A DNA stretch of 64,000 nt from Escherichia coli (GTDB taxonomy: Bacteria > Pseudomonadota > Gammaproteobacteria > Enterobacterales > Enterobacteriaceae): NCBI RefSeq assembly GCF_003334765.1, contig NZ_QOWT01000016.1, one strand, 5' to 3'. The stretch's first letter is position 1. Each line of letters opens with the position of its first letter. Shown here piece after piece: positions 1 through 42,864 of the stretch. A program made the translations under genes and the position numbers. Below the pieces are notes generated by a model, which was given only the letters and a program-made list of their open reading frames with translations, was not told the DNA's origin and did not search any database.

Positions 1-110
1 TTTTTCGTCTTGCGACGTTAAGAATCCGTATCTTCGAGTGCCCACACAGATTGTCTGATAAATTGTTAAAGAGCAGTTGCGACGCGGCTTTCAGCCCACT
101 GTCGCGAGGT
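1..110 (-). promoter_or_regulatory. rRNA operon leader with boxA antitermination element (TGCTCTTTAACAA at about 63-75); 16S gene lies beyond the window start
   Basis: Minus strand reads CTGCTCTTTAACAATTTATCAGACAATCTGTGTGGGCACTCGAAGATACGGATTCTTAACGTCGCAAGACGAAAAA, matching the rrn leader/boxA sequence. Confidence 0.85.
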
Positions 111-115
111 GGCGT

Positions 116-143
116 ATATTACGCTTTCCTCTTTCAGAGTCAA
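116..143 (-). promoter_or_regulatory. rrnHp2: rRNA operon P2 promoter (-35 TTGACT, -10 TAATAT)
   Basis: Minus strand reads gggTTGACTctgaaagaggaaagcgTAATATacgccacc; position and sequence match rrn P2 promoters. Confidence 0.75.
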
Positions 144-225
144 CCCTGAATTTCAGGATTTTTCTCTTCAACCGAACCGGCTGTTTGTGTGAAGTGATTC
201 ACATCCGCCGTGTCGATGGAGGCGC

Positions 226-253
226 ATTATAGGGAGTCGGCTCAGGAAGACAA
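226..253 (-). promoter_or_regulatory. rrnHp1: rRNA operon P1 promoter (rrnH-like); -35 TTGTCT, -10 TATAAT, GC-rich discriminator GCGCCTCC
   Basis: Minus strand reads cTTGTCTtcctgagccgactcccTATAATgcgcctcc, the classic rrn P1 architecture with a 16-bp spacer; A/T-rich UP-like sequence lies just upstream. Confidence 0.8.
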
Positions 254-293
254 GCGGAAAAATGCATTTTTATTTCAACCGCTCATCTTTTAA

Positions 294-869
294 TCATTGT
301 GCCGGTTTTTGCTGCTTTTTTATCGCTTGCGGCAGGTCTGCCAGGCTATTTAACACCCAATCCGCCGCGTTTTCTGCTTCAGGCGTAATAGGTTTACCCG
401 TACGCACCAGCACTTTTGTTCCCACGTTCGCCGCAACCGCTGCCTGCATATCTTCTAATTTATCGCCCACCATATAAGAAGCGGCCATATCAATATGCAA
501 ATAATCGCGTGCTGACAAAAGCATCCCCGGATGTGGTTTGCGGCAATCGCAGACCTGGCGAAACTCTTCAACACTACCCTGCGGATGATGCGGGCAATAA
601 TAGATACCATCCAGATCGACATCTCGGTCCGCCAGCGACCAGTCCATCCACTCGGTCAGCGTTTCAAACTGTGCTTCGGTAAATTTACCGCGAGCAATGC
701 CAGACTGGTTGGTTACTACCACCAGCGCAAAGCCCATTTTTTTTAGCTCGCGCATGGCGTCAATAACACCGTCGATAAATTCAAAGTTGTCGATCTCATG
801 GACATAGCCGTGATCGACATTAATGGTGCCATCACGGTCAAGAAAAATTGCGGGTACGCTCTTCGCCAC
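294..869 (-). CDS. gmhB: D,D-heptose 1,7-bisphosphate phosphatase (HAD family)
   Basis: 191-aa ORF starting [17 protein letters not shown] with the HAD DxDGT motif; recognised as GmhB. Confidence 0.95.
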
Positions 870-4815: not shown

Positions 4816-4926
4816 ATTCACGCCCTTCTCTTTTGACATTTCTTTTGCACTGGTAAACTAAATCACTTTTTTTTGTCCCAGGCTCGCCTTGAGCCTGTTC
4901 TACCTTCCAACTGGAACCGTAACAAC

Positions 4927-6645
4927 ATGCGTACTAGCCAATACCTGCTCTCCACTCTCAAGGAGACACCTGCCGACGCCGAGGTGATCAGCCATCAGCT
5001 GATGCTGCGCGCCGGGATGATCCGCAAGCTGGCCTCCGGGTTATATACCTGGCTGCCGACCGGCGTGCGCGTTCTGAAAAAAGTCGAAAACATCGTGCGT
5101 GAAGAGATGAACAACGCCGGTGCGATCGAGGTGTCGATGCCGGTGGTTCAGCCAGCCGATTTGTGGCAAGAGAGTGGTCGTTGGGAACAGTACGGTCCGG
5201 AACTGCTGCGTTTTGTTGACCGTGGCGAGCGTCCGTTCGTACTCGGCCCAACTCATGAAGAAGTTATCACTGACCTGATTCGTAACGAGCTTAGCTCTTA
5301 CAAACAGCTGCCGCTGAACTTCTATCAGATCCAGACCAAGTTCCGCGACGAAGTGCGTCCGCGTTTCGGCGTCATGCGTTCCCGCGAATTCCTGATGAAA
5401 GATGCTTACTCTTTCCATACTTCTCAGGAATCCCTGCAGGAAACCTACGATGCAATGTATGCGGCCTACAGCAAAATCTTCAGCCGCATGGGGCTGGATT
5501 TCCGCGCCGTACAAGCCGACACCGGTTCTATCGGCGGCAGCGCCTCTCACGAATTCCAGGTGCTGGCGCAGAGCGGTGAAGACGATGTGGTCTTCTCCGA
5601 CACCTCTGACTATGCAGCGAACATTGAACTGGCAGAAGCTATCGCGCCGAAAGAACCGCGCGCTGCTGCTACCCAGGAAATGACGCTGGTTGATACGCCG
5701 AACGCGAAAACCATCGCGGAACTGGTTGAACAGTTCAATCTGCCGATTGAGAAAACGGTTAAGACTCTGCTGGTTAAAGCGGTTGAAGGCAGCAGCTTCC
5801 CGCTGGTTGCGCTGCTGGTGCGCGGTGATCACGAGCTGAACGAAGTTAAAGCAGAAAAACTGCCGCAGGTTGCAAGCCCGCTGACTTTCGCGACCGAAGA
5901 AGAAATTCGTGCCGTGGTTAAAGCCGGTCCGGGTTCACTGGGTCCGGTAAACATGCCGATTCCGGTGGTGATTGACCGTACCGTTGCGGCGATGAGTGAT
6001 TTCGCTGCTGGTGCTAACATCGATGGTAAACACTACTTCGGCATCAACTGGGATCGCGATGTCGCTACCCCGGAAGTTGCAGATATCCGTAACGTGGTGG
6101 CTGGCGATCCAAGCCCGGATGGCCAGGGTACGCTGCTGATCAAACGTGGTATCGAAGTTGGTCACATCTTCCAGCTGGGTACCAAGTACTCCGAAGCACT
6201 GAAAGCCTCCGTACAGGGTGAAGATGGCCGTAACCAAATCCTGACGATGGGTTGCTACGGTATCGGGGTAACGCGTGTGGTAGCTGCGGCGATTGAGCAG
6301 AACTACGACGAACGAGGCATCGTATGGCCTGACGCTATCGCGCCGTTCCAGGTGGCGATTCTGCCGATGAACATGCACAAATCCTTCCGCGTACAAGAGC
6401 TTGCTGAGAAACTGTACAGCGAACTGCGTGCACAAGGTATCGAAGTGCTGCTGGATGACCGCAAAGAGCGTCCGGGCGTGATGTTTGCTGATATGGAACT
6501 GATCGGTATTCCGCACACTATTGTGCTGGGCGACCGTAACCTCGACAACGACGATATCGAATATAAATATCGTCGCAACGGCGAGAAACAGTTAATTAAG
6601 ACTGGTGACATCGTCGAATATCTGGTGAAACAGATTAAAGGCTGA
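4927..6645 (+). CDS. proS: prolyl-tRNA synthetase
   Basis: Recognised ProS N-terminus [20 protein letters not shown] at the ATG at 4927 (572 aa); the ORF-track upstream extension begins at a TTG and was not used. Confidence 0.95.
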
Positions 6646-6698: not shown

Positions 6699-7523
6699 AT
6701 GGATAAACCAAAGGCGTACTGCCGCCTGTTTCTCCCCAGCTTTCTTTTACTTTCGGCTTGTACCGTTGATATCAGCCAGCCAGACCCATCAGCCACAGCA
6801 GTAGATGCCGAGGCAAAAACATGGGCTGTCAAATTCCAGCATCAAAGCTCTTTCACCGAACAATCAATAAAAGAAATAACGGCACCTGATCTCAAACCCG
6901 GCGATTTGCTGTTCTCCTCAAGCCTTGGGGTAACCTCATTTGGAATCCGCGTCTTCAGCACTTCCTCTGTGAGTCACGTTGCAATCTTTCTGGGTGATAA
7001 TAACGTTGCAGAAGCGACAGGCGCTGGCGTCCAGATCGTTTCCCTTAAAAAAGCGATGAAGCATAGTGATAAGCTTTTCGTCTTACGAGTCCCGGATCTT
7101 ACCCCGCAACAAGCCACAGATATCACCGCGTTTGCCAATAAAATCAAAGATAGCGGTTATAACTATCGCGGCATTGTCGAATTTATTCCCTTTATGGTGA
7201 CTCGCCAGATGTGCTCACTGAATCCGTTCTCCGAGGATTTTCGCCAACAGTGCGTCAGCGGCCTGGCGAAAGCGCAGTTAAGCAGTGTGGGCGAAGGAGA
7301 CAAAAAGTCGTGGTTTTGTTCGGAATTTGTCACGGATGCCTTTGCCAAAGCCGGGCATCCACTTACACTGGCGCAATCGGGCTGGATTAGCCCTGCCGAT
7401 CTGATGCATATGCGTATTGGTGATGTCTCTGCGTTTAAGCCAGAAACGCAGTTACAGTATGTTGGGCACCTGAAGCCTGGGATTTATATCAAGGCGGGTC
7501 GCTTTGTTGGTTTGACCCGGTGA
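6699..7523 (+). CDS. yaeF: putative lipoprotein, permuted NlpC/P60 (papain-like) family, YaeF
   Basis: 274-aa ORF from the ATG after the proS terminator (MDKPKAYCRLFLPSFLLLSACT signal/lipobox); contains a Cys in WFCSEFV typical of NlpC/P60-type catalytic sites. Confidence 0.85.
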   Translation: MDKPKAYCRLFLPSFLLLSACTVDISQPDPSATAVDAEAKTWAVKFQHQSSFTEQSIKEITAPDLKPGDLLFSSSLGVTSFGIRVFSTSSVSHVAIFLGDNNVAEATGAGVQIVSLKKAMKHSDKLFVLRVPDLTPQQATDITAFANKIKDSGYNYRGIVEFIPFMVTRQMCSLNPFSEDFRQQCVSGLAKAQLSSVGEGDKKSWFCSEFVTDAFAKAGHPLTLAQSGWISPADLMHMRIGDVSAFKPETQLQYVGHLKPGIYIKAGRFVGLTR

Positions 7524-7529
7524 TAAAGT

Positions 7530-7650
<121 letters not shown>

Positions 7651-41393: not shown

Positions 41394-42818
41394 TTACTGC
41401 ATTAACAGGTAGATGGTGCTGTCGCCGCGCTGAATGTTGAGTGCCAGCACAGACGGTTTGCTGTCGAGAACTTTACGCAGTTCAGCGATGTTTTTCACTG
41501 CCTGCTGGTTCGCGCCAATAATCACATCACCTTTCTTCAGGCCGATCTGCGCAGCCGGAGTGCCCGTTTTCACGTTGTTCACTACCACGCCCTGATCTTT
41601 GCCTTTGTTGCTCATCTCAGCGCCTTCAATGCCGTTGAAGATGGAGCTGGAATCAACCTGATTCTGGCTGCTCTGCTGCAGTTCCAGGTTCACGTTAACC
41701 TGCTTACCGTCGCGCAGTAAGCCCAGGGTCAGTTTGCTGCCTACCGGCATAGTACCCACCTGAGCACGCAGTGCGGCAAAGCTGCTGATCGGCTTACCGT
41801 TCAGTGAGGTGATCACATCACCCGCTTTAATGCCCGCTTTTGCAGCGGAGGAATTAGGCAGAACCTGGCTTACGAAAGCACCGCGCTGGGCGTCAACTTT
41901 CATCGCTTTCGCCAGTTCGGAGTTCAGCTCAGTCCCCATAATACCCAGCTCACCGCGTTTCACCTGGCCGTATTCCACCATCTGCGAGGTCAGGTTTTTC
42001 ACCATGTTACTCGGGATAGCAAAACCGATACCGATGTTGCCGCCGTCCGGTGCGAGGATCGCGGTGTTGATACCGATCAGTTCGCCGTTCAGGTTAACCA
42101 GCGCACCACCGGAGTTACCACGGTTGATCGCTGCATCGGTCTGGATGAAGTTTTCGTAGTTTTCGGCATTCAGGCCGCTACGCCCCAGCGCAGAGACAAT
42201 CCCGGAAGTTACCGTCTCGCCCAGACCAAACGGGTTACCAATCGCTACGGTGTAATCACCCACGCGCAGTGCATCAGAATCCGCCATCTTAATTGCGGTC
42301 AGGTTTTTCGGGTTCTGGATTTGGATCAGCGCGATATCAGAGCGCGGATCTTTGCCAACCATCTTCGCGTCGAACTTACGGCCATCGCTCAGTTGAACTT
42401 TAATGACCGTCGCGTTATCAACAACGTGGTTGTTGGTGACGACATAGCCTTTATCGGCATCAATGATGACGCCGGAACCCAGCGCCATGAATTTCTGTTG
42501 CTGGCCGCCACCATTACCGCCCTGGCCACCCTGGCAGAACGGAGAGCTCTGGAACGGAGAACCTTCCTGGCAGAACGGAGAATCATCACCGAAGAACTGC
42601 TGGAAATTACGCGGCATACGCGGCGTATTAACGGTTGTGCTACCTTCTACGTTAATGCTGACCACTGAAGGCATCACCTTTTCGAGCATCGGTGCAAGGC
42701 TTGGCATCTGCTGGGCTGTCGTTGCTGAAGAAGTCTCAGCCGCCGTTGCAGAGAGCGGAGATAACGCCAAACCTAAACTCAGAGCCAGTGCACTCAGTGC
42801 TAATGTGGTTTTTTTCAT
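41394..42818 (-). CDS. degP: periplasmic serine endoprotease/chaperone DegP (HtrA)
   Basis: 474-aa ORF with signal peptide, trypsin-like catalytic Ser (GNSGGAL) and two PDZ domains; recognised DegP. Confidence 0.97.
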   Translation of the reverse strand: MKKTTLALSALALSLGLALSPLSATAAETSSATTAQQMPSLAPMLEKVMPSVVSINVEGSTTVNTPRMPRNFQQFFGDDSPFCQEGSPFQSSPFCQGGQGGNGGGQQQKFMALGSGVIIDADKGYVVTNNHVVDNATVIKVQLSDGRKFDAKMVGKDPRSDIALIQIQNPKNLTAIKMADSDALRVGDYTVAIGNPFGLGETVTSGIVSALGRSGLNAENYENFIQTDAAINRGNSGGALVNLNGELIGINTAILAPDGGNIGIGFAIPSNMVKNLTSQMVEYGQVKRGELGIMGTELNSELAKAMKVDAQRGAFVSQVLPNSSAAKAGIKAGDVITSLNGKPISSFAALRAQVGTMPVGSKLTLGLLRDGKQVNVNLELQQSSQNQVDSSSIFNGIEGAEMSNKGKDQGVVVNNVKTGTPAAQIGLKKGDVIIGANQQAVKNIAELRKVLDSKPSVLALNIQRGDSTIYLLMQ

Positions 42819-42864
42819 GTATTTCAGTCTCGATTAACAGATAACGCAAAATTGCTGTGTTCTT

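Follow-up and report, generated by a model that had tools for sequence, protein, structure and literature searches.

The rrnH promoter region and rRNA leader at the gmhB-side edge of an Escherichia coli contig segment

Introduction

The stretch of Escherichia coli DNA analysed here (64,000 nucleotides, 64 kb; hereafter the window) begins with about 295 bases that lie between its first position and the 3' end of gmhB, and the question is what these bases encode on the minus strand and to which operon they belong. A reading made from the letters alone (hereafter the original prediction) had placed there the tandem promoters P1 and P2 and the boxA leader of a ribosomal RNA operon, rrnH by context, running off the window edge. 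We find that the minus strand of window 1-295 almost certainly carries the control sequences and the 5' leader of rrnH, an rRNA operon of E. coli, and that the region is wholly textbook and already known.

The tandem P1/P2 arrangement with UP element and Fis sites has been described for the rrn operons, and promoter activity and Fis/H-NS binding have been measured for rrnH itself (PMC4696680). Published work on rrnB, rrnG and rrnH describes P1 as the strong promoter under growth-rate control, whose activity is raised by the UP element and Fis sites, and assigns basal expression to P2 (PMC4696680). Of the seven promoter regions, that of rrnH gave the lowest activity in reporter assays, and it is bound by H-NS (PMC4696680), and the relative expression of rrnH goes up under nutrient limitation (PMC6312700). 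All coordinates below are those of the window and refer to the minus strand unless stated otherwise; leader positions with a minus sign are counted from the 16S rRNA gene.

Genomic context and operon identity

On the minus strand, window 1100-1 matches several E. coli chromosomes with 100% identity and K-12 with 99.9%. Of 5426 complete E. coli genomes, 5415-5421 carry the locus at a coverage of at least 80%, and the leader part is found at a median of 7 places per genome. The sequence past the window edge was taken from public genomes identical to the window and not from the genome to which the window itself belongs. In these 100%-identical genomes the 16S rRNA gene starts, on the minus strand, 70 nt past window position 1. 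In one such record (L001), the base matching window position 1 is number 7100 of the locus, and 16S is annotated from 7170, with 69 leader bases (7101-7169, containing helices hB and h0) between the edge and the gene. The leader is cut by the window edge at 1-5, its remaining 69 nt and the 16S rRNA gene lying beyond position 1; on the L001 pattern the sequence beyond the edge should read TGAATACCAAGTCTC...CAAACTTTT and then, at +70, AAATTGAAGAGTTTGATCATGGCTCAG, the 5' end of 16S. The original prediction had located the rRNA genes just past the window start, which holds in the genome identical over 1100 bp, and had given precisely this 5' end, which L001 matches exactly. It had also put the 16S rRNA gene at a distance of about 100 bp, and at most about 150 bp, on the minus strand; the gene lies inside the wider limit, and the distance proved to be 70 nt.

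The operon in L001 runs in the order 16S, tRNA-Ile, tRNA-Ala, 23S, 5S and tRNA-Asp, followed by dkgB, with gmhB and metNIQ upstream, and K-12 has the same arrangement; the region under study thus immediately precedes, on the same strand, the 16S rRNA gene that opens a 16S-tRNA-23S-5S operon. The composition of the rrnH operon as to its tRNA set and flanks was taken from Maeda 2015 (PMC4696680). Because the spacer tRNAs are Ile and Ala, the distal tRNA is Asp, gmhB lies upstream and dkgB downstream, the operon is rrnH, as its context had suggested in the original prediction. Sequence identity, position relative to 16S, paralogue conservation and leader-trailer complementarity are shown directly by the present analysis.

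The alternative that the promoters belong to another rrn operon, or are a relic without a functional operon in this strain, draws on the multi-copy nature of rrn leaders and on the identity of the rrnH P1-P2 interval to that of rrnE, by which the leader alone cannot name the operon. However, the DNA upstream of P1 runs on without a break into gmhB-metNIQ, a flank that only rrnH has, and a complete operon with the rrnH tRNA set and dkgB follows in the 100%-identical genomes as well as in K-12, which makes this alternative exceedingly improbable.

The flanking gene gmhB (D-glycero-beta-D-manno-heptose 1,7-bisphosphate 7-phosphatase) occupies 294-869 as an open reading frame of 191 aa, with the stop codon TGA at 296-294, and is annotated as WP_001140187.1 in the 100%-identical genomes. 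On the minus strand, the interval from the gmhB stop (296-294) to P1 (window 226-300) showed no site resembling an intrinsic terminator, and transcription of gmhB may therefore continue into the activator region upstream of P1 and on into the rrn operon.

Elsewhere in the window, the proS reading frame (4873-6645, plus strand) begins with a TTG start and comprises 590 aa, while proS is annotated with 1719 nt (572 aa) in the identical genomes; the extra N-terminal residues are an artefact, since the open reading frame list takes the first possible start codon. A search of the whole window for tRNA genes with ARAGORN found none.

Tandem promoters P1 and P2

The promoter scan over 1.5 kb gave 5 sites compared with 1.4 +/- 1.1 in shuffles, and its top match was P1 (10/12). 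The P1 core consists of the -35 hexamer TTGTCT (253-248), whose TTG is invariant in the seven K-12 operons, a 16-bp spacer and the -10 hexamer TATAAT (231-226), which is part of the sequence TCCCTATAATGCGCC invariant in the same seven operons. It is followed by an 8-nt G+C-rich discriminator GCGCCTCC (225-218) and by A217, the ninth base after the -10 hexamer, at -286 relative to 16S. The element thus has the composition TTGTCT-16-TATAAT-GCGCCTCC-A expected for the P1 architecture, with its last base as the probable start. In rrnB, transcription from P1 starts nine bases downstream of the -10 hexamer, with the discriminator at -8 to -1 and ATP as the initiating nucleotide (PMC7822876). A literature search for explicit start-site coordinates of rrnH P1 and P2 gave nothing usable, and the rrnH starts were therefore placed by the rrnB rule. 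As rrnH and rrnB align without gaps at the discriminator and start, the P1 transcript would begin at A217.

Upstream of the core, the segment TGAAATAAAAATGCATTTTTC (277-257) lies at -60 to -40 from the P1 start and contains 81% A+T, as expected of the UP element, which is defined by the same interval in rrnB P1 (PMC7822876); by analogy, the RNA polymerase alpha-CTD may bind this segment in rrnH. Still further upstream, a 15-mer resembling Fis site I, GATTAAAAGATGAGC (295-281), agrees with the consensus GNTYAAAWTTTRANC at 11 of 13 specified positions and is centred at -71 from the putative P1 start. It aligns with the position of rrnB site I, the centre of which we take to be -71. In the 265 bp upstream of P1 the scan for GNTYAAAWTTTRANC gave one site with a score of at least 9 (shuffles 0.43 +/- 0.64), so that rrnH has one strong Fis match at -71 by a strict consensus scan that is blind to degenerate sites. 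From 3 to 5 Fis sites per rrn promoter have been reported, and gel shifts have demonstrated that Fis binds a fragment with the rrnH promoter (Maeda 2015, PMC4696680); occupancy of exactly 295-281 is suggested by the consensus match. The original prediction described the gmhB 3' end as abutting the UP/Fis region, and the adjacency is real, but the two are more than abutting: the TGA at 296-294 lies within the Fis-site-I-like 15-mer, and any further upstream Fis sites must therefore sit inside the gmhB coding sequence.

P2 is composed of the -35 hexamer TTGACT (143-138), part of the sequence TTGACTCTG invariant in the seven K-12 operons, a 16-bp spacer and the -10 hexamer TAATAT (121-116), with a scan score of 9/12 and a probable start near 109-107, the position being approximate. 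The -10 to -10 spacing from P1 is 110 bp, in agreement with the usual distance of about 110-120 bp from P1 down to P2. The P2 -35 hexamer is abutted on its upstream side by a perfect inverted repeat of 13 nt, CCTGAAATTCAGG (157-145), which rrnE and rrnD also have but rrnA, rrnB, rrnC and rrnG lack. The two promoters are thus present on the minus strand as predicted, while their description as being of consensus quality is only partly justified, since the P1 -35 and the P2 -10 hexamers each match at 4/6 positions, the P2 -35 hexamer at 5/6, and the spacers are of 16 and not 17 bp.

Several other candidates in this part of the window were set aside. The terminator-like matches on the plus strand at 111-125 and 145-157 are complements of inverted repeats in the leader and promoter and are no gene's terminators, and the plus-strand open reading frames 77-232 and 262-477 are antisense to the leader and gmhB and were treated as non-genes.

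Antitermination and processing leader

The order boxB-boxA-boxC just after P2 is known from the rrn leaders (PMC10250234, PMC6614801). The boxA sequence TGCTCTTTAACAA was found at 75-63, on the minus strand as predicted and just downstream of P2, as an exact copy of the element (U)GCUCUUUAACAA; by homology it is a putative site for NusB/NusE(S10), and it is invariant in the seven operons. The exact 13-mer is the sole copy in the 64 kb window, with about 0.002 expected in 128 kb of two strands, whereas the search of the window allowing up to 2 mismatches gave 2 sites vs 1.4 expected, which is not above chance, the extra site being unrelated; weight was therefore given only to the exact copy in its setting. 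The functional deletion of boxA in rrnB, -147 to -133 (Warner 2023, PMC10250234), maps to window 78-64, and U-141 to T72.

Upstream of boxA, the boxB-like hairpin GCGACAGTGGGCTGAAAGCCGCGTCGC (105-79) is predicted to fold with the stem GCGAC/GTCGC and an inner stem at -14.4 kcal/mol; this energy is not separable from that of shuffled sequence (z about -1.3) and, for that reason, is no evidence when taken alone. Downstream of boxA, boxC TCTGTGTGGG (50-41, i.e. -119 to -110) is an exact match to the motif UCUGUGUGGG used by Warner 2023 (PMC10250234) and is invariant in the seven operons. The hairpin 5' of boxA and boxC 3' of it stand at the canonical spacing, which equals that of rrnB with no indels. 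The rrnG and rrnB leaders, which are identical to the window over boxA-boxC, are known to bind NusB/NusE, NusA and SuhB and to confer Rho resistance (PMC10250234, PMC6614801). Of the leader elements, the original prediction named boxA but left out boxB, boxC, helix hA and the strand that enters the RNase III leader-trailer helix.

The leader (5') strand of the 16S leader-trailer helix, on which RNase III acts, was located at 63-19; the complementary strand follows the 3' end of 16S, some 1.7 kb past the edge of the window. For the comparison, the 70 nt that come directly after 16S in L001 served as the trailer. Window 63-19, which surrounds boxC, pairs near-continuously with trailer nucleotides 5-48 at -57.9 kcal/mol, while duplexes with shuffled trailers reach -23.3 +/- 3.6 kcal/mol (best -33.7). 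The RNase III cut presumably falls at about -115, that is, at about window position 46. In rrnB the essential leader-trailer segment is -113 to -89 (PMC10250234), which corresponds to window 44-20 and agrees with the computed duplex. Such rrnB coordinates (PMC10250234) transfer directly, because the leaders are free of indels downstream of boxA; the same indel-free alignment places helix hA (CGTC-GCAA-GACG) at 17-6, i.e. -86 to -75. In the published work boxC forms part of the leader-trailer helix, which is processed by RNase III and is essential for 30S biogenesis (PMC10250234, PMC6614801).

Comparison with the paralogous operons and related systems

The window, extended with L001, was aligned with the seven K-12 rrn upstream regions (L003-L009). 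Invariant in all seven are TCCCTATAATGCGCC (the P1 -10 hexamer and the start of the discriminator), TTGACTCTG (the P2 -35 hexamer), the greater part of the P2 -10 region and the entire stretch from boxA up to the window edge, with two variable positions between the edge and 16S. Upstream of the P1 -35 hexamer the seven operons diverge completely, as is expected where unique flanking DNA begins. Between P1 and boxA (window 79-217) two leader types were distinguished: rrnH, rrnE and rrnD have in common the P1-P2 interval, the P2 -10 hexamer TAATAT and the GCGAC...GTCGC hairpin, whereas rrnA, rrnB, rrnC and rrnG carry 8 extra bases between P1 and P2, the -10 hexamer TATTAT and a different boxB hairpin sequence. 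The two types would be consistent with gene conversion within the groups.

The K-12 rrnH region (NC_000913.3 223409-223770, gmhB-rrsH) has the same promoter elements, boxA, boxC, leader-trailer strand, gmhB flank and 16S distance as the window, from which it differs by a single base of the boxB-like hairpin (A there, G at window 96). When the window is compared with rrnB P1/P2, as the original prediction had proposed, both promoters and boxA align. The rrnB region resembles rrnH in Fis site I at -71, the UP element, the P1 TATAAT with a 16-bp spacer and a G+C-rich discriminator, P2, boxB, boxA, boxC and the leader-trailer strand, and from boxA to 16S the two are identical but for two single-base differences beyond the window edge. 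On the other hand, they differ in the sequences of the UP element, the 5' half of the P1 spacer and the boxB hairpin, in the P1 -35 hexamer (rrnH TTGTCT, rrnB TTGTCA), in the discriminator (rrnH GCGCCTCC, rrnB GCGCCACC), in the P1-P2 interval, which is 8 nt shorter in rrnH, and in the P2 -10 hexamer (rrnH TAATAT, rrnB TATTAT).

The rrn leader may also be likened to the nut sites of phage lambda, in which boxA bound by NusB/NusE and a hairpin on the nascent RNA likewise give rise to a termination-resistant polymerase; it differs from them in the order of the elements, boxB preceding boxA, in having a boxC besides, and in the participation of SuhB and S4 in place of the N protein (PMC10250234, PMC6614801).

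It might be argued that the hexamers and boxA arose in this intergenic stretch by coincidence, given that shuffled sequence yields 1.4 promoter-like matches per 1.5 kb and that boxA with up to 2 mismatches is not enriched. However, the region is exactly identical to the characterised rrnH region, the promoter cores are invariant in seven paralogues, and the 45-nt complementarity to the 16S trailer is far beyond that of shuffles, so that the probability of a chance origin is negligible. Judged from the sequences, the stronger case against chance is homology, above the promoter scan.

Relation to the Ysr197 small RNA family

The only Rfam match in the region is RF02849, 'Ysr197' (Yersinia sRNA 197), the model of which aligns with window 300-53 (minus strand) over its full length of 254 positions (E=3.7e-36). 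Ysr197 has been reported as an sRNA that is abundant in the exponential phase and repressed in the stationary phase (PMC4376681, PMC9029176). From this it might be supposed that the region is an independent small RNA gene homologous to Ysr197, instead of or besides an rRNA leader. However, the match of 143 bits is below the gathering threshold of 167, which makes the region homologous to the family but not a member by the Rfam criterion, and the model matches all seven K-12 rrn leaders directly upstream of 16S (78-145 bits, all below 167). Moreover, the Ysr197 consensus holds the P1 -35 and -10 hexamers, the P2 hexamers and boxA, the growth-phase pattern of Ysr197 is what rrn P1 control predicts, and the model ends on its 3' side at window 53, about 7 nt away from the RNase III cut, as would suit a leader fragment set free by processing better than a separate gene. 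A separate small RNA gene is very improbable here. Since its consensus includes the P1/P2 hexamers and boxA and matches seven leaders, the Ysr197 family appears to model the multi-copy enterobacterial rrn promoter/leader and not a stand-alone sRNA. An identity with the rrn leader would explain why a survey ranks Ysr197 as the most prevalent 'sRNA' in bacterial genomes (PMC9029176), as well as its repression in the stationary phase (PMC4376681).

Apart from this region, Rfam matches above the gathering score were recorded elsewhere in the window, all on the minus strand, for naRNA4 (REP-derived nucleoid-associated RNA, 7568-7644), CssrA (32908-33017), t44 RNA (33856-33942) and the HtrA 5' UTR thermometer (42813-42858).

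The G96 substitution

The G at window 96 is the sole difference from K-12 rrnH and falls in the boxB-like hairpin, where it changes the predicted apical pairing, the predicted energy being -14.4 kcal/mol as compared with -13.5 kcal/mol for the K-12 A allele. Against the 5426 complete E. coli genomes, the search listed only seven matches with 100% identity over 1100 bp, and over 300 bp only the first of 40 evenly spaced ranks reached 100%; thus, the G96 allele looks rare among complete E. coli genomes. It could be imagined that G96 alters the function of the rrnH leader (e.g. rrnTAC assembly or folding), or that the leader fragment released by RNase III ('Ysr197' in Yersinia) acts in trans, but it is very improbable that either holds. 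When the entire boxB region was deleted from rrnB, little changed (PMC10250234), which makes an effect of G96 on leader function less likely.

Proposed working of the region

The start sites, protein binding and regulation proposed here for rrnH would be those expected by analogy with published work on rrnB, rrnG and rrnH. Sigma-70 RNA polymerase would initiate at the two tandem promoters. P1, with its perfect -10 hexamer, suboptimal -35 hexamer, 16-bp spacer and G+C-rich discriminator, would be growth-rate-regulated and form an unstable open complex, which would be sensitive to ppGpp/DksA and to the initiating NTP. Its activity would be boosted by the alpha-CTD on the A+T-rich UP element and by upstream Fis, with site I over the gmhB stop, and P2, about 108 bp downstream, would give basal expression.

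The nascent leader would then present boxB, boxA and boxC, of which boxA would recruit NusB/NusE; together with NusA, NusG, SuhB and S4 these would form a Rho-resistant rrn antitermination complex, in keeping with the assembly of the rrnTAC on the nut-like leader, in which boxA recruits NusB/NusE along with the same four factors (PMC10250234, PMC6614801). Later the boxC segment would pair with the sequence past the 16S 3' end, and the cutting of this helix by RNase III would yield the pre-16S rRNA.

Conclusions

The rRNA promoters and the rrn antitermination/processing leader are among the best-studied bacterial regulatory regions, and no new question is opened by their presence here. The value of the assignment is in annotation only, as it anchors the window at the gmhB-rrnH junction and establishes that it is reverse-complemented with respect to the K-12 coordinates. 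The rrnH control region accounts for the first approximately 295 bases of the window being non-coding yet almost perfectly conserved.
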